DNA from: Candidatus Bathyarchaeia archaeon
GTDB lineage: Archaea; Thermoproteota; Bathyarchaeia; Bathyarchaeales; Bathycorpusculaceae
Assembly (NCBI GenBank): GCA_049521795.1
Contig: JBEKOM010000007.1
Coordinates: 1-64,000 of the forward strand
Reading direction: 5' to 3'
Length of the DNA: 64,000 nucleotides
Program-made: the position numbers and the translations under genes
Notes under the pieces: generated by a model
What the model saw: the letters and a program-made list of their open reading frames with translations, nothing else
Database searches by the model: none
What the model was told of the DNA's origin: nothing
In this document: one piece after another, positions 2,327-58,135 of the stretch
Position numbering within the stretch: the first letter of the stretch is position 1
Layout: every line of letters begins with the position of its first letter

Positions 2327-2585
2327 AGAGCGCGCGCGGCACTTGTCCTCCTAGTACCAGTTGTTCTTCTCTTACATGATTGATTCTTGTTTTCAAAAGG
2401 GTTCTTTGTCCAAGCGCGCGCTTTTTTCCCATGAGGCGTTGACGATATATCAAGACGAGGAATTAAACTGTCCAACCTCACGAGGCATGCGCTAAAAATA
2501 CAAAAACATCTCGGTTGGGTTAGTGCCTTGAAGGGTTCAGACTTCTATCGGACTAACACCGCCCGTACTAGAACCGAAATGGGAG

Positions 2586-2680
2586 TGGGCCCGCCCGGAC
2601 TCGAACCGGGGATCTTCGCCGCTTCCTCAGGCGAATCTGCCTTGTGAGGGCGACGTCCTACCAAACTAGACTACGAGCCC
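2586..2680 (-). tRNA. tRNA-Val(CAC) with ~21-nt intron in the anticodon loop
   Basis: Acceptor GGGCTCG/CGGGCCC, anticodon stem TCGCC/GGCGA, loop CT-CAC-A, T-arm CCCGG-TTCGAGT-CCGGG. 21 extra nt lie 3' of the anticodon. Confidence 0.9.
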
Positions 2681-5991: not shown

Positions 5992-6069
5992 GCGGGCGTA
6001 GTCTAGTTTGGTCTAGGACATCAGCCTGCCACGCTGACGACCCGGGTTCAAATCTCGGCGCCCGCACCA
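5992..6069 (+). tRNA. tRNA-Gly(GCC), CCA encoded
   Basis: GCGGGCG/CGCCCGC acceptor, TCAGC-CTGCCAC-GCTGA anticodon arm, GTTCAAAT T-loop. Confidence 0.95.
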
Positions 6070-15622: not shown

Positions 15623-16306
15623 TCATTCAGGACCACGTTTCGGTTTCAACTCGCCATCCTGCATCGTGTAAACAAGGTCTGCCGCGTCGACTATCTTTTC
15701 GTCATGCGTTGCCACTACGACCGTCGTCTTCTCTAGATGGTTAATGTCCTGGAGCAGACTGATTATTTCTTTAGCTGTTGCCGAGTCGAGCTCCCCTGTG
15801 GGTTCGTCGGCAATGATTATTTCAGGCCTGTTCGCGAGAGCCCTTGCTATCGCCACGCGTTGCATCTCGCCCATGCTCAACTGTTTTGGCCTGTGGTCCT
15901 GTCTGTGTGTCAGTCCCACGGTTTCGAGAAGCTTCATTGCCCTTTCCCGCTGCTCTTCTTGGGACTTGTTGACCAGTGACATTGGCAACTCAACGTTCTC
16001 CAAAGCGCTGAGCGTGGGAAAAAGATTGAAAGTCTGAAAAACGAACCCGATGCGCGCACTGCGGATCTTTCTGCGCTCACTAGCGGATAGCTGTGAGGTG
16101 TCAGAATCATCGATGAAGACTTCCCCAGAAGTTGGATAATCATTCAAGCCGATTAGATTAAGCAGCGTAGACTTGCCTGAGCCCGAAGGTCCGATGACAG
16201 TGACCAGCTTCGGCTCATTGATTTCCAGGTTCGCAGCCTTAACGGCTGTTATTTCGGATGAGCCTACTCGAAACGATCTTGTCAGGTTCACTGTTCGAAT
16301 CTTCAT
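15623..16306 (-). CDS. ABC transporter ATP-binding protein (LolD/MacB-like)
   Basis: GPSGSGKST, LSMGEMQRVAIARAL, ADEPTGELD. TGATG overlap with the permease stop. Confidence 0.93.
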   Translation of the reverse strand: MKIRTVNLTRSFRVGSSEITAVKAANLEINEPKLVTVIGPSGSGKSTLLNLIGLNDYPTSGEVFIDDSDTSQLSASERRKIRSARIGFVFQTFNLFPTLSALENVELPMSLVNKSQEEQRERAMKLLETVGLTHRQDHRPKQLSMGEMQRVAIARALANRPEIIIADEPTGELDSATAKEIISLLQDINHLEKTTVVVATHDEKIVDAADLVYTMQDGELKPKRGPE

Positions 16307-17490
16307 CAGTATTCCGCTCTTAGAACTTCGGCTATCCTCATCCTCATGGCGTTTGCCGCCGGAATTATCCCGCCGACGCAGCATATGCCGACGATAGCTG
16401 CAAACATTTCCAGCATGTAAAAGGGTGGCACAATCTCAAAGATGCTGGGGAAGAAAAGTGTAACAGGAATGCTCGTGTAGAGGCTTGCCAAAACGATGGC
16501 CGCCAGTGAACCGAGGGCTATTCCGATGACGCCGCCTAGGATACCGATTAAGGAAGTTTCTATGATGACTACTCGAAACACGTAGCTTGTTGGAGCTCCC
16601 AAGGCGTCTAGGGTTGCGAAGTCGCGGCGTCTCTCTGACACACTCATGATTGTGACGGTCATGACGAGGATCAGACTGATGGTGAAGACCACTGCTTCGG
16701 TGCCGATGGTCCATGTCTGCAGCTGCTCTAGAATGGGCTGAATGATATCGTTCCTCTGAGTCTCCGTCAAAGCGTTGACGTAGGTCAAGTTTTCATCATC
16801 GTTTATGGTCTTAGTTAAGTTCTGCTCTGGCACGTCCTGAACAGGCTTGACTGCAATTATGTTCACGCTTCCAGGATAATTGTAAACGCTCTGCGCAAGT
16901 CTGAGAGGCATGACCAAACAGCGATTCAGCAGGGCCATCTTCGTGTCCAAAACGCCAGAAAGTCGCAATGCGTAGCCGTTCACTTGTATCTCCGTGCCCA
17001 CGGTCCAACCATACTGATCTGCTAAAGAAGCGCCGGCCACAATTTCGTTGCTCGAATCATTCGCTGGAAAATGTCCGTTCTCCCTCAGCGCTATGGGTCC
17101 GAGTGCAAGCTCCCAATCTTCAACCGGGATCCCCATCGTGAAGTTTACGGGCACAGGCTGAACCAGTGCCTGAGATCCCACCGATGTTACAAACAGGACT
17201 GGAGTGACAGCGCTCACCCCTGCAAGGGCTCTTATTCGTTCAACTGTTAGATCTTGGGGCAACATGCCCCCGCTGATGGGAATGGCCTGGATCACGATAG
17301 CATCGTGGCTTACCACCGTCACCTGCCCGTGGAAAAGCACGTTCATCTCCTGAATCACCGTCGCATATCGCATGCTGGTGGCGCCTACAGCGATCACGAA
17401 TGTTGCCGCAATCGCAACTCCTAATATGCATAGTGCTGTTCTGACTTTTCTTCGAAGGAGGTTTCTGAAGCAGAACGTGAGTAGCCGCGT
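16306..17490 (-). CDS. ABC transporter permease (FtsX/MacB family), apparent ACG start
   Basis: In-frame RNLLRRKVRTALCILGVAI lies upstream of the ORF-track start. SVSERRRDFATLDALGA motif. AGGTGA SD precedes ACG at 17490. Confidence 0.85.
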   Translation of the reverse strand, partial: TRLLTFCFRNLLRRKVRTALCILGVAIAATFVIAVGATSMRYATVIQEMNVLFHGQVTVVSHDAIVIQAIPISGGMLPQDLTVERIRALAGVSAVTPVLFVTSVGSQALVQPVPVNFTMGIPVEDWELALGPIALRENGHFPANDSSNEIVAGASLADQYGWTVGTEIQVNGYALRLSGVLDTKMALLNRCLVMPLRLAQSVYNYPGSVNIIAVKPVQDVPEQNLTKTINDDENLTYVNALTETQRNDIIQPILEQLQTWTIGTEAVVFTISLILVMTVTIMSVSERRRDFATLDALGAPTSYVFRVVIIETSLIGILGGVIGIALGSLAAIVLASLYTSIPVTLFFPSIFEIVPPFYMLEMFAAIVGICCVGGIIPAANAMRMRIAEVLRAEY

Positions 17491-17587
17491 TTACGGTCAC
17501 CTAGGCGGTTAGTCTTGCGTGAAAACTATATAAGCATTGACAACGGATGATTATACCGCTAAGTCAAATTGAAATGGAGAAGCAAGT

Positions 17588-20500
17588 ATGAAAATTACTA
17601 AGAGAATCTTGAGTCTATCGGTTTTGTTTCTCTTGCTGGTTTCAACGTTCACAGTGATATCTAGATCCAACATAGCTGCGCGGCTGATGCCTGAAGCGAC
17701 GTTGACTGGCACCATTTTTGACCATGGTGTTGACACTAATGGCAACGGCCTGTTTGATTACTTAGAGGTCGATGTGGAAATCAACGTGACTGTTGCAGGA
17801 AACTTCCAGGTGACAGTTGACGGGCTTTCGGACCAGTTTGGTCACTACACGTACGTTTACAGTAGTAGCCAAGGCGACCTTGAGGCTGGCATTCAATATC
17901 TAAACGTGTCCCTGTTCGGTCCAACCATCTTCAACTCCGGCTTAAATCCCCAAAAAATCAGTTATATCCAATTGTACACCGGAAACTACTATCTAGACGG
18001 CACGGGCAATGTATACTTGTCGAGAGTGTACAACTCTTCTGAATTTGATCCCCCTGGTGCCCTCTTGACGGGAAACATTTCGGACATGGGCGTTGACACT
18101 GATGGCGACCACCTCTTCAACTATCTTCAAGTCGGAATAGAAATCAACGTGACGGGAGCCGGAGAATACCAGGTCAGCGTAGAGGGGTTGATGGAAAACA
18201 ACACCATGACGAATTTCTTGTACGATTACGAGTATAAAACGGAAAGCTTTACTGTCGGCGTTCACATGGTCTACCTGAATTTTTCAGGTCCAGAAATCGC
18301 TTCTAACCACTTCAACCCGACGCATGTTTACTACATAAACATTTACGATAGCTTAAACAACTATGTGACAAGTCACCTTGATTCTGCACCTCTTTCAATG
18401 CGGTACAACTACACACTTTTCAACGCACCCACAAGAGACATTCAAGTCAACTTCAACGTCTACCCAAACGCGACGGTCGCAGTGGACGGAGCATTCAACT
18501 TCACACACATGTACCCAGAGAACACGAACACGCCACAAGAAAACGCCACGATGGGCTTTTCAACGAGCGGAAACCTGACAACAGAAACATCCAGTGGAAC
18601 TATTGTTTTCCCAGACAACCCATCTTTCAACTACAGCGCGACTGAAGCACACCTCCGCTCATCATACGCGAACGGCGTCGAAAGCGCCACTGTTAACGGC
18701 TCAACGCTCTTGCCTGCGGATGTGGCTGGGATCTACCCGTACAACGCGACGGACGTTAATCTTACCGCTGCATACACTCACGGCTTGTTTGACGTGGGCA
18801 TCATAGGGACAACGGTGATGCCGCCCAGTTACGTCAGCTCCACTTTGGGCACTATTTACAGCACTGTTCTTCCACTTAACGTGTCCGACGTCACGGTTCG
18901 TGCAGATTTCGACGGAACAAACATCATAGGAAACATCACTTTCCACTCGATCGGAGGATTTCCACTTGCCGATGTCAGGTTGGACTTCAGCGGCAGCAGA
19001 AGCAGCCTCTCCTTCACAGGCAACGTCAACGTCACTTACATGAACTATAACGGTTATGAATTAAACGAAACCACAGTGGACCAAGAAGTCAGCCTGATCA
19101 ACAACCTAACTGGGCAAGGGTCTGGTTCCCTCTTCGACATGACTGGGGGCTACCTAGAATGCACGCAGCTGAGCGTCACCAAGATTCCGTGGTCAGACCC
19201 AACGCTTGGCGCAGACATCACGTTCAGCGCCACCGTAGACGGAAGCTTCACAGGAGCTATAGCCTACGTGATGTTTCCGACGGGACTTACAGATGATTAT
19301 CTGCAGAACTTGGCACACGCTTCCTTGGGGTCAGTAGCCTCTTCGGTTAGAAACGCCTCTTTGACACTCAACTATTATCATAGCTCAGGAATAGCACAGA
19401 TGGACGTGCATTTGACGAGTGATGTGCAAGGCCTGTACAACAGTCTTCTTCTCTCAGTGCCCCCCGCGATACCCAGTGTTTGGGCTTCATATAAAACGCA
19501 GATCGAAACCTGGCTTAAGATCGCGAACGCTACGGCCTACACGCTTACGGACGCAGGTTTGAACGCTTCCTACTCGAGCGCCGAAGGCAAAGCATCTCTG
19601 AACGCGTGGCTCACAGCCAATGCAAGCCAGCTCAAAAACGACATCCTTCCATTTCTACCAGACGCGGTACCAACAAGTATGCATGACCTCTTCGAATCCT
19701 TCTTCAACACCACCCCGTACCTCACCTTGTCTTCTTCAACTGAAACGCTTGATATGGTTAATGGAGTAGCGACCTTTGGTACAACCGAGACTCTTCAAGG
19801 CGATTTCGAAGCTGAACTGAACCGCGACAAGAGTCTCTTGCTGGAAGCAACGAGTTCCTCGTATCCAACGACATTGCCATGGGATCTTCGTCTGCTCAAC
19901 GAGACCGATATAAACATCAACAACTTCCAAGTAGAATTCAAACTTGGACAAGACTGGATGAGCGGGAGCTTCAACGGGCTGATTCTTAAACCTCAGGCCG
20001 ACAACATAGATTCCGTAAGGTTCGAACTCAAAAAGTGGCTGAACCTGACGAATGACGTGGGGGCGCCGCCGCTTGAATTTGATAGACTTTCAGTCACAGT
20101 GACGGGAGAGTCAAGTGCCAACCAGACGGTTCTGCTCAGCCAGCCATCCGACGTGCCGAACCCGGACAGCATATCCGGAGACTATAGGAGCATGGCCTGG
20201 AACAACGTCTCTCTCAGCAGTCTGCAAGACCTGATGTTTCTCGAAGCCTATCAAGAAAAAGTCAGTTACCTCGGAGGAACGTTCCCCATTCCGATATTCA
20301 CAAACTCTACAGTAACCAACTTTGGCTTTGACCCCAGCGCCAAGCAGATAACGTTCAACGTCACAGGAGCAGCGGGCACCCTAGGTTTCTGCAACGTGAC
20401 CATTCCAAGAAACCTGCTCAACGCAAGCGCACTCAGTGACTGGGTCATAGTGCTCGATGGAAAAACCTTAACTTCGGCAGAGTTCAACATAACACAAAAC

Positions 20501-27024: not shown

Positions 27025-27767
27025 AGGCCGCAGGACTCTAACACTTTCTCGAAATTCTCTCGGTCCACGTCCTTCTTGTAGTCTCTAAGCGCGCTGATCA
27101 CGGTCTTCCTGTTTCTATCGCCGAGTCTCTCAGCCACTTCATGCGAGAGCTCGCAGATGAACAAGAACTGGCAGATCGAGGTGACGTTGGACCGCCTTCG
27201 GTTCACGCTGGCCGACTCAAAATCAACAATGAACGCGCTGTCCTCCGCAGTCACGATCACGTGTTTCGGCGCATGGCTCAGTTCACCATGGTCCAAACCG
27301 GCCATGTCCAGCCTCCAACACTGTTCCAACACGTCGCGCAGAACCCTCCTTATCCGTGTCCTGCCAACCTTCTCTTCAAGCCAGTTTGGAAGCAATTCAC
27401 CCTCAACGAACTGCATCACGAGAAAGTCCTTGGTGACCCCCAAGAGTCTGGGCCCTACGCCCACCACGTTTGCCTCCGTGAGCAGTTCGCCTTCCCGTCG
27501 CATACTCGCTCTGTCAGCGTCCGTCCTCCTAATTTTCAGCGCCACCTTCTCACCGTCTTTGTGCGCAATGGTTACTAAGCCAACACAGCCCTTGCCCAGC
27601 ACGTGCACGTTGAGAACCTGCTTCTTCCCCGTGAACTCTAGGGCGACTATTCCCAGTTTTCTCAGCTCAACCAGACGCTTCCTCAGCTCCGCCTTGGCTA
27701 CCAAGGGATAGCACACTATCGACGCGTAGGGTTCTTCGATCAGCCTCTCGGTAGTTACTACTACCAT
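27021..27767 (-). CDS. RIO/Bud32-like Ser/Thr protein kinase
   Basis: LGKGCVG, VALKIRR, DHGELS, IVDFESA. Confidence 0.88.
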   Translation of the reverse strand: MVVVTTERLIEEPYASIVCYPLVAKAELRKRLVELRKLGIVALEFTGKKQVLNVHVLGKGCVGLVTIAHKDGEKVALKIRRTDADRASMRREGELLTEANVVGVGPRLLGVTKDFLVMQFVEGELLPNWLEEKVGRTRIRRVLRDVLEQCWRLDMAGLDHGELSHAPKHVIVTAEDSAFIVDFESASVNRRRSNVTSICQFLFICELSHEVAERLGDRNRKTVISALRDYKKDVDRENFEKVLESCGL

Positions 27768-27868
27768 CGCTATCCGTGCCTTTTTCCTTTTCAGCTTCGA
27801 TTTCGCTTCTCCCAAGTGCGATTTAAGTCTTGTTTGGTTGCGCGCACGCAAGAAAAGAAAAGAGGGAA

Positions 27869-28171
27869 CTATTTTTTAAGTTCGACAACTAAGAGGTCTA
27901 AATCGGTTTTCCCTGTGTTCTCAGCTTCGTGAGATTGAGCCTTAAGGAAAATTGCCTGACCAGTCTTCAAGTCTAATACATCTGTTTTTCCTGAAGATGT
28001 CAGCTTTGCCTTGCCACCTTTGAGAACATATACCACATGGTCTGGATGGTTATGCATTATCGCCTTGTCGCCTGGCTTAAACAGGGCTTCAAGTACACGC
28101 ACACGGTCGTTTTCCATTATGAACTTGTAGACGTTTTTGGCCACTTTAATTGGGTCTTGCGCTTTTTCCGT
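27869..28171 (-). CDS. Cupin domain protein, apparent ACG start
   Basis: ENDRVRV, MHNHPDHV, HEAENTG. GGAGGTG SD precedes ACG at 28171. Confidence 0.85.
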   Translation of the reverse strand, partial: TEKAQDPIKVAKNVYKFIMENDRVRVLEALFKPGDKAIMHNHPDHVVYVLKGGKAKLTSSGKTDVLDLKTGQAIFLKAQSHEAENTGKTDLDLLVVELKK

Positions 28172-28290
28172 TATTCCACCTCCAGTTTCCTCATTCCTTC
28201 TTACACTCTTTGCTTGCATACTTAAAAATATGTGACTGTAAGGGCGCGCTTCACCCCGAACCAAACGTTCTAGAAAGCCGTGCTGATTAT

Positions 28291-28929
28291 CTAGCCGTCG
28301 AGCTGTGGAATTCGCCGAGCCAGTTCGACCCAGTTTTCAGCAACGATCTTTCTTATTAGCGGTTTGAGACCAGCAAAAACCTGTGGCGGCATAAGAGTCA
28401 TCCAACCCTTTGTAATTACAACCCTGTCATCAAGGCTAAGCAAGGGGAACAGCCACTCAACTAGAGTTGGGAATCTTTCAGGCGGCACTTTTTTTGACAT
28501 GAGGCCAACAATGGAGGCCTGTTCGCTCTCTGTTGTTCGTTCTCTCAGGATCGGATACAGATGAGCGTCTTCTTTGTCCAAATGAATTCTCAGATGCGAA
28601 GCTAGGACTGCTGTCGCCCTCGCTGTTGTCAGAGGATCAGGTGCTCTTCGCATTGCTTCCAGCCCACTAACCATGGTGTCAAGCTCACGGTGATCCATGA
28701 AGTAAGCCTCCGCCACAAGAGGGGTTACATTGTCAACAGCGGGAAAAACCGCCGCCTCCTCGCCCCTAGCGTGATAGTCCAAAATCTCGCCCATAATATG
28801 AAGTCGATCCAAAACGGCAGTTAGATCCCCGCCACTACGTGCTATTTTGAAGACTGAATCATCAATCTGGAAAATATCACGACGAAACGCATTATGAATA
28901 GAGCGCACTATGTCAATCGGTCCAGACAA
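28291..28929 (-). CDS. Hemerythrin-like (HHE) domain protein
   Basis: HNAFRRD, HARGEE..VFP, DHREL, HLDKED..LYP. Confidence 0.88.
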   Translation of the reverse strand: MSGPIDIVRSIHNAFRRDIFQIDDSVFKIARSGGDLTAVLDRLHIMGEILDYHARGEEAAVFPAVDNVTPLVAEAYFMDHRELDTMVSGLEAMRRAPDPLTTARATAVLASHLRIHLDKEDAHLYPILRERTTESEQASIVGLMSKKVPPERFPTLVEWLFPLLSLDDRVVITKGWMTLMPPQVFAGLKPLIRKIVAENWVELARRIPQLDG

Positions 28930-29580
28930 AGATTCACACCCACATTTGAAAAGTCACGTCGAGTATAAAGATATGTTGCTGTAGTTCCACAGTCAGAAAA
29001 ATCGAATTTTTCTTAGTCTCAGGTTTGGGGTAAAGTTTTATCCAACCAACCAACCATTACGGACGACGACGGACGACGACGGGCCAACGACGGACGACGG
29101 AAACGATAAACGCACGACGGAGGATGGAAGGGAGGATGGAACAAAAGTGCTTTTCAACGTTAAGAAATGTATATCTTAAGCTCTTCTTAAGACGTACATT
29201 TCACAAACAGGGATGGACGGTGCTCTTACTTCATGTGCGAAAGTGTAAGAGAATTGAGTAAAAGGCTTTATGCCACTTGCCAATGAACTTCTGCCGATAG
29301 GAATGTGTCGCGCGCGCTTGAAGTCTATCTGGGATATGACCAAGAAGCACAAGATCAAGCAATGGAGATCAGTGAATGATTTCGCGCGCTAAAATTGCTG
29401 AAGCATCTTGCGCGCGCTAAAAGTCTACGGAGAGCAAATAGAGCATTTGAATCCAGAAGAGCTTGCCAATCTAGTCAAGATCTGCGGTTTTCTTATGCAG
29501 ACCAAAGTCTACCTATTCTGGAAGACCTGCGATAGGTAGTTTCCCGACCTCAGATACAACGTGTGCGGTCGCTCTTTGCT

Positions 29581-41285: not shown

Positions 41286-44200
41286 TCATCTTTCTCCTTT
41301 GATCCAGCCCTTGATCCCCAACTCTTTGACTGTTATGCTAATCGGTTCCGGCTGGTGCGATTTGTATGTGCCGTTTTCGTCCAGATACAGTACAGTAGGT
41401 TTCAAAAAGAATTCTCCCTGAGCCTTTGACTTAATAGTGAGCCTCACCTCTTCCGTCTTCAACGGGTCAAGCCTCTTTCCCTTCATGTTGAGATAACTGT
41501 CTTCTACGCGGTAGATTTCAGGTTTTTCTGCAAGCTCAAAACCTGTGGGAATGACCTCCGTGATCTTAATGAGCTGGGCAGAGCTTTTTCCCGCGTTGAC
41601 AAGCTCTATCTCAAGATCCAGGTTTTCCCCGACTTTCAGTTGCTTCTGGCGTATAACGAGGTTTGCCTGTACATTCGCGTTTTCAAATTTCTCCAGGCCT
41701 ACCGCGTTTTCTTGGTTTGGTGTGGGCGTTGTGAAGGCGGAGGTTGTTGAAACAATCGACGGCGCGTGCAGTACCTCGCTGAGAGACAGGGCTAGTTCTC
41801 GTTCCTCCTTCACCCTCTCCAGTAGCCTTAGCACCTGTTCCCTTTTTTCCGGATGCTCCGCCTTCATAAACGAGCCTGCTGAGGTCTGCAGCACCTTTTC
41901 GGCCATCATGTAAAGTCTTGCTTTTTTCTCAGGATCGCTTTCTCCCTTAGCATTGTCCATGTGCATGTAGGCATCAAGGAGCAGTTCGGTTGCCTTGGCA
42001 TACTCTGATGCGTTCTGGAAGCCAGCTCTTACGTAGTGTTTGGCGGCGCTTTCCAGTTGCTGAATGGCGATCTTGTACAATTCCGCGTTTCCTGTGTCAG
42101 CGAATCTTGTTCCGGCTTCAAGCGCTCTGCAGAAGCGACTATGTCCCAAAGCTAACATTTTCGCCTTCTCGTTAGGACTGAACTCTTTGGCTTCCTCAAA
42201 GAGCTGGGACGCTTCTAGGTACAGGTCAGGGGATCCCTCAGCTTCTGCGCCAGTCATTTTTGCCCAAGCCTGAGAAAGAATCGTGATGAGTCTGAATTCC
42301 TTCTTTTCTTGTTCTGACTCTGTCGCCTTGGTTATTTTCTGAAGAGTCTCCGCCGCTGAACAGTATTTTTCTGAGCTGGCGTGGTGATCGCCTTCCTATC
42401 AAGGATTTTTGCCTCTTCGATGGCGATTCTCGCCAAGCAGTATTCGCGCCTTGAGTCCGTTGCATTGACCATTTGGGTGGCCATCTGCTTCTCGTCTGGG
42501 TCTTCAATCTTGGCAAGTCCATCCTGGATAGACTTCTTAGTTTCTTCAAAAAGTCTGGCTGCCTGTTCAAAGGCTTGGAGGGCTTCTTCGCTCTGGTCTT
42601 TTCTGCTAAACTCCTCCGCGTGCTCAACTTGGGCCCAGGCGAAGTAGTTTGGAGCTAGGTAACTCCATTGTTTCAACGATTTGTGCATGTTGGCGGCGTT
42701 CTGAAAGTGCTCCTCTGCTAAGCCACACTCTTGTCTTTCGTGATGATGTCTTGCCTTCTCGATTTGACTCCAAGCCTGCATGTAACACGCATGATCCTGA
42801 TAAAAGCCCTTGAGCTGAGGAATGTTTTCTGCGGCGGTCACGTAGTTGTCTGAGGCTGAGCCGAAGTATTGAGCCGCATTTGAATGTTCGCCCAGCGCAT
42901 CATAAGCTTGGGCGATCTTCCAGTGGCATTCAGCCATGCGGCTTCTAAGATTGAGCTTTCGAAATGATTCAGTCGCTTCTCTAAAGACTTCTATGGCCTT
43001 TTTCAAACACTCTCGGTTTTGAGTAAGGGCATATAGGCGGTTCAACACATTTCCATATTCAGATTGCGAATACCCAAGAACAGCAAATAGCGATGTTAAA
43101 CCTGGACGTTTGCCTTCAAAGAATGTCAATTCTTTAGCAAGAAGTTTCAAGGAATTCTCTCTGGATAACGCGACTTCCTGGAGCAGGTTCTTCCTGGTCT
43201 CGGGGTCATCTGATATCTCGGCAAGATCAGATTTTATCTTAGCCAAACTTTCCTGCGTTATACCACGGTTCCAGTAGAGAAGGGGCGTAAGCTGCTCAGT
43301 CATCGCAACAGATTCTTTCTTGTGTTGCAGAGCCTGTTCGAGAAGCTTCTTTTTCTCGTCGCAGTTGGTTTCTGTTTTGGCTAAAACAGAAATAATCGCG
43401 CCGACCATGCTATGTGCATACATAATTGCTTCTGGATACCCAGAATTCTCAGCCTTCTTCAGCATTTCCGGTGCGGCTTTCATGGCTTTTTCAATCAGAT
43501 CACGCTTTTTCTTCACGTCTACTTCCATACCAGCCAGCCACATGCTGGAATCAGCAGGAGACGCTTCGATCCAAGCAAGGTCTGCGCGTGGACTTATGAA
43601 CGCGATTTGAGAGAACTGTTCTCTGGCGTCTTGAATATACTCTATGACTGCTTTTGCGAGCTGAGCTATCTCGTCCTTGTCTTCAAGGCCGTTTGTCTTC
43701 CAAACAGTGTGATAGGTGAGCCAGTCCAATGCACATCCGATGAAGAATCTGTCTTTGGTTTTCTTAGCAGACTCCAATCCTTTCTTGCAGTTCGACAGGG
43801 CTTCGTCCGAACCTTCCAAGCCGAATATGGGTTGACCTCCAAACACTGGGAATAACGATTCAAGGGTGGCTGTCTCTTCGGAAAGCTCTTTAGCCTTGGC
43901 CCAGTAGTCCAGACCTTTTTGATAGGACTGTTCTCGCTCATGTCCGTCTTGGCAGTAGTAGCCGAACACTCCTAGACAGACAACCGTTTTTGCACAGGCT
44001 TTTGCGAGTTCGGGTACGTCCTCGGAATCGGAAAGGAACTTTACTGCCTTCTCTCCACACTCCACCGTTTCCTTCATGATCCTTACGCGCGCTTGAAAAT
44101 CCGACTCAAGTGTGAATTCAAAAATGGGGCCACTTGACAGCTGATTGTACGTCTTTCCATAATCCCAAGAGGCTTCAGCAGCTTCAAAAGCTTCTAGAGC

Positions 44201-54024: not shown

Positions 54025-54630
54025 CTAATTGTGCTCAGCTCGAAGTTCAACAAACATGGAATATGCAAACAGACCCAGATAAAACAGGCTTGGAAGCACA
54101 AGAAGGGTTGGAAGAACATATTCTTGGCCTCGACCAACCGCGAGCAAAGGTCCGAGAACCGCACCTAGCGGGATTATTAGAGCCCAGTTCTTGTTATGCG
54201 GTTCCAAAAGAGTCTGCAAATCGCCCAGCTTGTACATGATCGGCAAGGTTGAAAAGAGAAGGATAAGCTCCGCAATGACGTTAGTTAGGCTAGTTACGTT
54301 GATGTTTAGAGCTCCGAACCAGCTCTGGGACAAAGGCCAGAACAGCTTGACTCCTCCGGTGAAAAAATCGCCTATGAGAATGTGAGAGAGCAAAGCCGCG
54401 TAATACGGGACTGCTTGCTTGCGATAAACAATAAAGAACGGAATCATCAGCACGGTTATGGTGATGAGTGAGTGCGTGGGTCCCCGATGCATGAGGAAGC
54501 GCAGTAGCAGATCAACGTCTGGAAGAACCGAAGCCGCAAAGAGAAGCGGCATGTTCGCTTTGACTTTAGCAAGCTTTGAAGAACCCTTTCCCGTTATGTA
54601 TCCCAAAGCAAAGTGGCCGATTGCGAACGT
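54025..54630 (-). CDS. Membrane-bound metal-dependent hydrolase (YdjM-like), apparent ACG start
   Basis: GH (upstream of the ORF-track TTG), LPDVD, HRGPTHS, SHILIGD. GAGGT SD precedes ACG at 54630. Confidence 0.85.
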   Translation of the reverse strand, partial: TFAIGHFALGYITGKGSSKLAKVKANMPLLFAASVLPDVDLLLRFLMHRGPTHSLITITVLMIPFFIVYRKQAVPYYAALLSHILIGDFFTGGVKLFWPLSQSWFGALNINVTSLTNVIAELILLFSTLPIMYKLGDLQTLLEPHNKNWALIIPLGAVLGPLLAVGRGQEYVLPTLLVLPSLFYLGLFAYSMFVELRAEHN

Positions 54631-57700: not shown

Positions 57701-58135
57701 TCATGGTTTTGGTTTTAGCAGTCTTGAGTTAATGATTTTGTTTGCTGTGTTGTGGAGTTTTTGATCTGCAGTGTACAGTGTGCCGTTCAGTTTCTGCGTT
57801 GCTGCCACGTAGAGTGAGTCGTAGATTGTTATGTTTTGGGTTAAGGCTATTTCTGTTGTTGCCTCTTTGAGTTCACGCGTTGTAAGAATGCCAAGTCCGT
57901 CGTATATTTTGGTGAGGTCGTCTATCGTGGGGTTTGTTTCTTCTGGTCTTAGGTCTTTGTGTATGTTTGTATGTTTCCATATGGCGTTTAGGCCTCCGGC
58001 TAAGGCAATGTCTACTGTGTAGAGGGTGTAGCCTTTTTTCAGTAGGTTGGTGATGGTTGCTCTGGCTCGTTTAGAGCCGGGTTCGTTCATGACGAGTTTT
58101 ATGATTATGTTGGAGTCGAGGATCAGCTTCGGCGT
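57701..58135 (-). CDS. vapC: VapC-like PIN-domain toxin, non-canonical start (ACG at 58135 or CTG at 58126)
   Basis: LILDSN, IYDSLYVA, LYTADQKL. The second conserved acidic position appears to be Gly (ALAGGLNAIW). Confidence 0.85.
   Translation of the reverse strand, partial: TPKLILDSNIIIKLVMNEPGSKRARATITNLLKKGYTLYTVDIALAGGLNAIWKHTNIHKDLRPEETNPTIDDLTKIYDGLGILTTRELKEATTEIALTQNITIYDSLYVAATQKLNGTLYTADQKLHNTANKIINSRLLKPKP

Follow-up and report, generated by a model that had tools for sequence, protein, structure and literature searches.

ACG as the probable initiation codon of an ABC permease gene and of further genes in Bathyarchaeia

Described non-canonical starts and the permease locus

Initiation at codons one base removed from AUG is known from eukaryotes and their viruses, in which ACG or CUG is taken by initiator Met-tRNA in a favourable context, as for VP2 of adeno-associated virus and the C' protein of Sendai virus. 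NCBI translation table 11 lists AUG, GUG and UUG as starts together with rare CUG, AUU, AUC and AUA, and to our knowledge the codons with a changed middle base (ACG, TCG and GCG) are not in that list. The AUU start of bacterial infC belongs to a single autoregulated gene, and in plant chloroplasts and mitochondria C-to-U editing makes AUG from genomic ACG starts (ndhD, psbL), pentatricopeptide repeat (PPR)-type editing factors being a plant feature. Here we analyzed 64,000 nucleotides (nt) of a Candidatus Bathyarchaeia archaeon (positions 1 to 64,000 of contig JBEKOM010000007.1, assembly GCA_049521795.1; hereafter the window), in which the gene of a MacB/FtsX-type ATP-binding cassette (ABC) permease on the minus strand very probably begins with ACG. 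A passage of one review gives archaeal starts as AUG, GUG and UUG and describes archaeal aIF1 and aIF2 as homologous to eukaryotic fidelity factors (PMC4705826). Our full-text literature searches, with subscription journals outside their coverage, returned no paper on ACG start codons in archaea, and such a start appears to be undescribed in the literature searched.

The Bathyarchaeia starts described below resemble eukaryotic and viral near-cognate initiation in that the codon at the initiation position is one base off AUG, a favourable context is needed, and the non-canonical codons most favoured are ACG and CUG. However, the context would be Shine-Dalgarno (SD) pairing instead of scanning with a Kozak sequence, and housekeeping and essential genes would have ACG as their only start, whereas eukaryotic alternative or upstream starts yield a minor isoform. 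In further contrast to the eukaryotic cases, ACG is conserved over whole families of organisms, and TCG and GCG also occur. As among the table 11 starts, first-position wobble is tolerated on SD-led mRNAs, and the CTG starts of Rpo7 and aldehyde:ferredoxin oxidoreductase (AOR) lie within that list, but ACG, TCG and GCG change the middle base. As with infC, a weak start codon is kept by selection, plausibly for a low or regulated translation rate, although here the codon is ACG and it recurs in a large number of unrelated genes and lineages. Plant-organelle editing offers another likeness, namely a genomic ACG where homologues have ATG, conserved within lineages and one C-to-U step away, but the Bathyarchaeia are known here from DNA alone and are archaea.

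Read along the minus strand, the start of the permease gene presents AGGTGA, CCG, TAA and ACG in this order, exactly as a preliminary description made from the letters of the window had given it (Table 1). The codons after ACG, from CGG CTA CTC ACG to ACA GCA CTA, translate as TRLLTFCFRNLLRRKVRTAL. The encoded protein has the features of a MacB/FtsX-type permease: an N-terminal helix, a MacB periplasmic core domain (Pfam MacB_PCD, residues 18-217, E = 4.9e-12, with profile position 1 at residue 18), a C-terminal FtsX domain (Pfam FtsX, residues 267-384, E = 1.2e-15) and an adjoining ABC ATPase gene. Between the in-frame TAA and the conserved N-terminus there is no ATG, GTG or TTG, the first of these being the GTG at codon 32 (17397). 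Because position 1 of MacB_PCD corresponds to residue 18, the family N-terminus lies 5' of this GTG, which bears out the earlier claim on this point. The 3' end of the 16S rRNA is GGATCACCTCCT, and confident ATG starts (n = 389) carry an SD consensus, GGTGA, that ends at -7; the permease AGGTGA with its 6-nt spacer fits this arrangement, so that the spacing does resemble that of canonical genes.

Permease orthologues were collected from a search of 31 related genomes and from a scan with one genome per species. The species scan yielded 17 permease loci, two of which lacked the N-terminus at a contig end; the 15 readable loci, which again included the relatives G001, G002 and G011, had ACG 13 times, GTG once and GCG once in the start column. 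Taken together, the 17 distinct orthologues from other Bathyarchaeia (44-89% identity) carried, in the same column, ACG in 14, GTG in one (L134), GCG in one (L135) and ATG in one (G025, 44% identity, reading MRLTHMCLRN). A stop codon followed by ACG was found in G001 (89%) and G002 (88%), and ACG also occupied the column in G011, from another genus (61%), and in G024, from another family (47%). The Met1-aligned ACG of the permease is conserved at the levels of genus, family and order. An SD-like GGGGAT or GGAGAT 5-6 nt 5' of ACG and a TTATATA box about 35-39 nt 5' of the start were likewise kept in the orthologues, ACG together with the SD motif down to 47% protein identity. The preliminary description had allowed that close relatives might carry ATG with the genes under relaxed selection; instead, the relatives keep ACG and the codons behind it change synonymously. 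Codons 2-5 vary among synonyms (CGG/AGA/AGG/CGA; CTA/CTG/CTC/TTG), and over codons 2-31 the window's genome (2.44 Mb in 69 contigs, of which the window is C7:1-64000) and G001 differ at eight nucleotides, six of them synonymous; this stretch is therefore coding. The other threonine codons, ACA, ACC and ACT, never occurred in the start column of the 17 orthologues, although ACG makes up only 32% of the threonine codons within genes. All threonine-type codons in the start columns of the permease (14/14) and of Rpo7 (17/17) were ACG, the lineages being related and the draws not independent. The ACG triplet is thus selected beyond the amino acid that it would encode.

These data leave little room for a start at a downstream canonical codon, in which case the ACG would be unused and the protein shortened, or the gene decaying after loss of its start. 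GTG 17397 is indeed the first canonical codon, and some other ACG candidates have canonical codons shortly downstream. However, this GTG is situated inside the first transmembrane helix, past RNLLRRK, a conserved motif, and lacks an SD sequence (-2.7 kcal/mol), whereas the 31 codons upstream of it are kept with mostly synonymous change across the 17 orthologues, ACG and its SD motif are conserved, and the frame is full-length without internal stops in every orthologue. In the DnaG gene treated below, the next canonical codon even lies 78 codons on, within the region matched by the profile. We therefore consider a downstream start very improbable.

Still less credible, to the point of being negligible, is an origin at the out-of-frame GTG 17500 followed by a programmed frameshift or a sequencing error, or an ACG that is an assembly error for ATG. 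GTG 17500 does open an 86-codon open reading frame (ORF) in another frame, but it is not conserved, G001 and G002 reading GGGGATCGTAA/G, and for this reason a frameshift origin was rejected; moreover, none of the 17 orthologues needs an indel. An assembly error, for which the preliminary description had also allowed, conflicts with the ACG found at the permease start in independent assemblies made by different methods, and with a contig from another sample (X2, 1115 nt, 17410-18524) that spans the site with 0 differences; contigs of four DNA runs were compared with the window. From the conserved sequence context, we conclude that ACG 17490-17488 is very probably the genuine initiation codon of the permease.

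The TATA-box-like TTATATAG lies about 39 nt 5' of ACG, and a short SD-bearing leader is therefore implied; by analogy with known archaeal promoter layout, this box may act as the promoter. Neighbour genes not chosen for odd starts were canonical: the ABC ATPase in 24/24 alignable orthologues (a canonical codon at the column or at most 3 codons from it), S24e in 23 of 24 readable genes and Spt4 in 12/12. The S24e column comprised 25 genes, of which 23 were canonical, one had CTT and one an N. These columns were read by eye, automatic calling having confused internal methionine columns with starts.

ACG and other non-canonical codons in start columns

For a genome-wide view, stop-to-stop ORFs of the window's genome were paired by BLASTP with those of the complete single-contig relative G001, giving 1549 pairs with at least 70% identity. 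The test set consisted of codons at least 4 codons 5' of the first canonical start in these orthologue-supported ORFs, and a strong SD was defined by a duplex energy of -8 kcal/mol or lower. A strong SD preceded 11 of 151 ACG codons in the window's genome, against 327 of 11481 codons overall (p = 0.004), and 12 of 169 against 294 of 11560 in G001 (p = 0.0014), ACG having the highest rate of all codons in each genome. Pooled, ACG reached 23/320 against 2.7% (p = 2.6e-5), and CTG ranked third after GAA with 20/366 (p = 0.003), p values that overstate the signal because the two genomes are close kin and the sites are not independent. The other threonine codons were not enriched (ACA, ACC and ACT together 8/489 in the window's genome), and TCG, GCG, ATA, ATT, ATC, AAG and AGG had no comparable excess in the pooled data. 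At the -8 kcal/mol limit the excess is about 7 ACG sites in each genome and, because only 17.7% of the 389 confident ATG starts reach that value, the total may rise to about 40 of 1549 ORFs; our data thus suggested roughly 7 to 40 ACG-start genes per genome. Every ACG case seen has an SD motif.

In several genes an ACG in one genome faces ATG or GTG behind the same SD in the other. The overall spectrum of start-codon changes between the two genomes was set aside because the numbers are small: ATG/ACG was the commonest canonical-to-non-canonical pair (17 in one count, and 3 of 16 in a count restricted to genes with an SD in both genomes), but 9 ATG/ATA pairs also occurred. Two other approaches were discarded. 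The extent of BLAST alignments between the genomes as a marker of the N-terminus, in which 431 of 1593 pairs aligned at least 8 codons 5' of the first canonical start, was dropped because the genomes are too close; the substitution bias by codon position was too weak per gene, with rates of 0.078, 0.063 and 0.173 for coding sequence and about 0.105 for non-coding sequence.

The preliminary description had reported the same arrangement at three further sites in the window, 28171, 54630 and 58135 (Table 1). An SD motif followed by ACG stands at all of them, but at 28171 the in-frame codon before ACG is ATA and not a stop. Anti-SD duplex energies were -9.7 kcal/mol for the permease, -14.0 for the cupin gene at 28171, and -8.8 and -10.0 for the other two. 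The gene at 54630, encoding a YdjM-like membrane hydrolase, has TAA directly 5' of ACG and AGAGGT 7 nt upstream, and position 4 of the Pfam YdjM profile aligns to residue 4. In 30 genomes of the order, its start column held ATG 14 times, TTG 5, ACG 4 and TCG 7; each of the TCG cases (L159, L164, L167, L170, L173, L175 and L176) stands behind GGAGG, and the 13 codons shown after it include no canonical one. The comparison strongly supports an ACG start for this gene. A start at ACG is also well supported by homologues for the PIN-domain gene at 58135, for which five orthologues had ACG (3) or GCG (2; L395 and L397) behind an invariant AGGGAGGA with a 6-nt spacer. In the orthologue of another genus (G018, 75% identity), no canonical start occurred in the 12 codons from ACG, past LDSN, the PIN N-terminal motif.

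For the cupin gene, GGAGGTGG lies 4 nt 5' of ACG and a canonical GTG occurs 9 codons downstream. One homologue (G101) begins one codon after the ACG column, and because only two informative homologues were present among 101 genomes, support for this ACG start is moderate. A paralogue in the same genome (C14 15844-16140, plus strand, 76% identity) has ATC in the ACG column, preceded by a GGAGGTGGAA motif that the window copy shares; the earliest canonical codon is a TTG 7 codons after this ATC. In contigs of three other DNA runs, from peat metagenomes, the summed depth was 25 to 517 over window positions 27343-29343, which hold the cupin gene and its neighbour at 28291-28953, and 1-10 elsewhere. 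Many letters differ in this stretch, and other organisms in the samples apparently carry related sequence in abundance.

The four window sites thus hold, with 28171 at moderate strength, but the rate of 4 in about 55 genes that had been noted is above the genome average and locally high, because the genome-wide excess is only about 7 to 40 genes. The view that ACG is a used start rather than a chance loss is borne out by selection on the triplet, whereas 'routine' initiation overstates its frequency. ACG was also not the only odd start, since CTG in the window's genome and TCG and GCG in relatives widen the set.

Further named genes of the window's genome also have non-canonical starts. A DnaG-type protein has an ACG start behind AGGAGGTG, with position 1 of NF003108 at residue 10 and the next canonical codon 78 codons downstream; within the family of the window's genome each of the four genera has ACG in the column, G027 has ATG, and the start in G047 is probably CTG. 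ACG starts were likewise assigned to the gamma subunit of 2-oxoacid:ferredoxin oxidoreductase (NF006323 position 2 at residue 4), to HflX (profile position 4 at residue 5) and to RpoK, the last also with ACG in three genera of family f1 and three of f11. Apparent CTG starts were found for Rpo7 (C1 341304-341900, minus strand; NF006333 position 1 at residue 1) and AOR (C2 124386-126350, plus strand; NF007354 position 4 at residue 3). A response regulator (C5 10254-10706, plus strand; ATG there in G001) and a methyltransferase (C4 22740-23216, plus strand) had apparent CTG starts as well.

The broadest comparison came from Rpo7, which was matched in 113 Bathyarchaeia genomes, 110 of them with a readable start column: ATG in 71, TTG in 15, ACG in 17, GTG in 4, CTG in 2 and TCG in 1 (L201 in G037). 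ACG was found in 6/6 genomes of family f11, 5/5 examined of f20, 3/3 of f23, 2/9 of f31 and 1/1 of f18. Outside the class, 24 Thermoproteota matches had a profile alignment beginning at position 2, and the 10 inspected among them (8 families) all had GTG or ATG. The near-cognates ATA, ATT, ATC, AAG and AGG were absent from the start columns of Rpo7 (0/110), the YdjM-like gene (0/30) and the permease (0/17). One and the same column is shared by ACG and canonical codons in the permease, the YdjM-like gene, Rpo7 and DnaG. Such columns suggest that ACG starts are a class-wide habit of Bathyarchaeia in SD-led genes, including the essential Rpo7, RpoK and DnaG, alongside ATG, GTG and TTG, with CTG as a less frequent start and TCG or GCG confined to certain lineages.

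The gene 3' of Rpo7 gave a separate observation. In L195 and L197 (G044 and G035), at locus position ~2288, GTC ACC ATT ATA comes right after the TAG of the upstream gene; relatives have GTG or ATG there, with the conserved N-terminus MAVxYxLTPELR, and in L196 and L209 ATT or ATA is all that is offered. A further odd start may be involved, or else ribosomes may re-initiate once the upstream gene has terminated.

Standard gene callers generally consider only ATG, GTG and TTG, and because of this such proteins would be shortened or missed in every Bathyarchaeia genome. The permease would lose 31 residues, among them the greater part of its first membrane helix, and DnaG would lose 78. For this class, a bias in public protein sets, in domain annotation and in structure prediction is accordingly likely. 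Comparative evidence is currently the main handle on these starts, because all known class members in the data set are metagenome-assembled.

Proposed reading of ACG by the initiation apparatus

Of the two components that the preliminary description had singled out, the initiator tRNA has a normal anticodon and aIF1 is present in the window's genome. The initiator tRNA gene (C1:163271-163392, plus strand) has a CAT anticodon, and its anticodon stem contains the customary three G-C pairs. Two introns seem to interrupt the gene, the first following the anticodon loop and the second close to the variable region or T arm, and ARAGORN placed them wrongly. A special initiator tRNA was considered and rejected: ARAGORN with introns enabled gave two additional 'Thr CGT' tRNAs, on C12 and C1, neither with the AGCGGGG initiator acceptor end, and at least the call on C12 was a misreading, with a CAT anticodon arm inside the supposed intron. 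Loss of aIF1 was likewise discarded, SUI1 being present (77.9 bits), as was a change of the genetic code giving ACG = Met. ACG is the commonest threonine codon in genes (6837/21129), and a tRNA-Thr with anticodon CGT is present; because ACG serves as an ordinary threonine codon inside genes, the code is unchanged.

Our favoured reading, which rests on sequence comparison, is that the initiator tRNA would read ACG directly. A TATA-like promoter would give rise to a short leader carrying the SD motif, which would pair with the 16S 3' end and set ACG in the ribosomal P site, where the ribosome would start. The ordinary initiator Met-tRNA (CAU) most likely takes ACG through a C-A mismatch at the middle position, probably less efficiently, and methionine would then presumably be the residue inserted; first-position wobble would already admit G, U and, here, C.

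Several observations weigh against this reading, or against the starts on which it builds. TCG and GCG have two mismatches to CAU and fit direct decoding less well than C-to-U editing. An excerpt of a study in E. coli places ACG among the codons that initiate at 0.1-1% of AUG, with products carrying an N-terminal methionine and, in one culture, threonine (10.1101/063800); because of this low rate, reliance of an essential gene on ACG implies that the apparatus is adapted. The p values of the SD test assume independent sites, although the two genomes are close kin. Cruder genome-wide tallies found no ACG enrichment, and the signal emerged only after codons beside canonical starts had been dropped. 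Exact 5-mer or 6-mer SD matches before every codon gave ACG 20/1055 in one tally, the highest rate and about twice that of the others, but ACG did not stand out clearly in another exact-match tally or in one based on duplex energies at all N-terminal codons. Such simple tallies are low in power because SD use is modest in the window's genome and because codons adjoining genuine starts raise the background. Several ACG candidates are followed, 3-12 codons on, by a canonical codon to which the start could have shifted, and 2 of the 17 permease orthologues (G011 and G024) have an ATG 4-5 codons 3' of the start column.

The alternative in which C-to-U mRNA editing would convert ACG to AUG, TCG to UUG, GCG to GUG and CTG to UUG, such that the ribosome meets only canonical starts, accounts well for the composition of the start columns. 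Each non-canonical codon in them (ACG, TCG, GCG and CTG) is one C-to-U step from a canonical one; the near-cognates that such editing could not repair (ATA, ATT, ATC, AAG and AGG) are missing from the Rpo7, YdjM-like and permease columns and unenriched behind SD motifs; TCG and GCG are double mismatches to CAU; and the third base and CG context of ACG are invariant. However, no common motif around the C other than the SD was seen at the permease, YdjM-like and Rpo7 loci, an enzyme would have to act at codon position 1 (CTG) as well as position 2 (ACG), and T-to-C transitions from canonical starts would give the same set of codons provided that a C-A pair, and wobble at the first position, can be tolerated. 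We know of no mRNA C-to-U editing in archaea, and our full-text literature searches found no paper on it. On balance, editing seems unlikely. Isolated ATC, ATT/ATA and GTC cases were also seen in two other genes.

A broader proposal, which we put forward tentatively, is a dedicated mechanism for an expanded N-Y-G start set (ATG, GTG, TTG and CTG plus ACG, TCG and GCG) that would serve Rpo7, RpoK and DnaG across families. It could consist of C-to-U mRNA editing, or of a change in the initiator tRNA or in the P-site check by aIF1/aIF2 whereby a pyrimidine in the middle of the codon is admitted.

If initiation at ACG is true, the prokaryotic start repertoire would extend to a middle-base mismatch, and how the eukaryote-like archaeal initiation apparatus checks the P-site codon would become a concrete question; the data also raise the possibility of mRNA editing in archaea. 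The Bathyarchaeia are a globally abundant class of sediment and peat archaea, in which ACG would be the sole start of essential genes.

Coordinates and minor observations

The features of the permease locus and of the three other ACG sites are collected in Table 1.

Table 1. Features of the permease locus and of further ACG sites in the window
Feature	Position	Strand	Evidence or detail
ACG, proposed permease initiation codon	17488..17490	minus	Start-column conservation
TAA in frame, directly 5' of ACG, closing the frame	17491..17493	minus	Sequence; TAA or TAG there in G001 and G002 too
Shine-Dalgarno motif AGGTGA, 6-nt gap to ACG	17497..17502	minus	Duplex energy -9.7 kcal/mol
TATA-box-like TTATATAG, ~39 nt 5' of ACG	17526..17533	minus	gcTTATATA kept in most orthologues
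MacB/FtsX-type permease coding sequence, 394 codons from ACG plus stop	16306..17490	minus	Pfam domains
GTG, first canonical start (codon 32), rejected	17395..17397	minus	Inside first membrane helix; SD -2.7 kcal/mol
ABC ATPase gene, same operon; canonical ATG overlaps permease stop	15623..16384	minus	Orthologue starts
YdjM-like membrane hydrolase gene	54025..54630	minus	ACG 54630-54628; TAA 54633-54631; AGAGGT 54643-54638
PIN-domain gene	57701..58135	minus	ACG 58135-58133; GGGAGGA 58148-58142, 6-nt gap
Cupin gene, probable ACG start	27869..28171	minus	ACG 28171-28169; GGAGGTGG 28183-28176

Elsewhere in the window, an ORF at 41286-42395 (minus strand) has its first canonical start at codon 46 and aligns with G001 from its first codon, and a GGCGATCACC motif (-12.1 kcal/mol) precedes its codon 5 (GCC). 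The window also carries genes for tRNA-Val (CAC; 2585-2680, minus strand) and tRNA-Gly (GCC; 5992-6069, plus strand).

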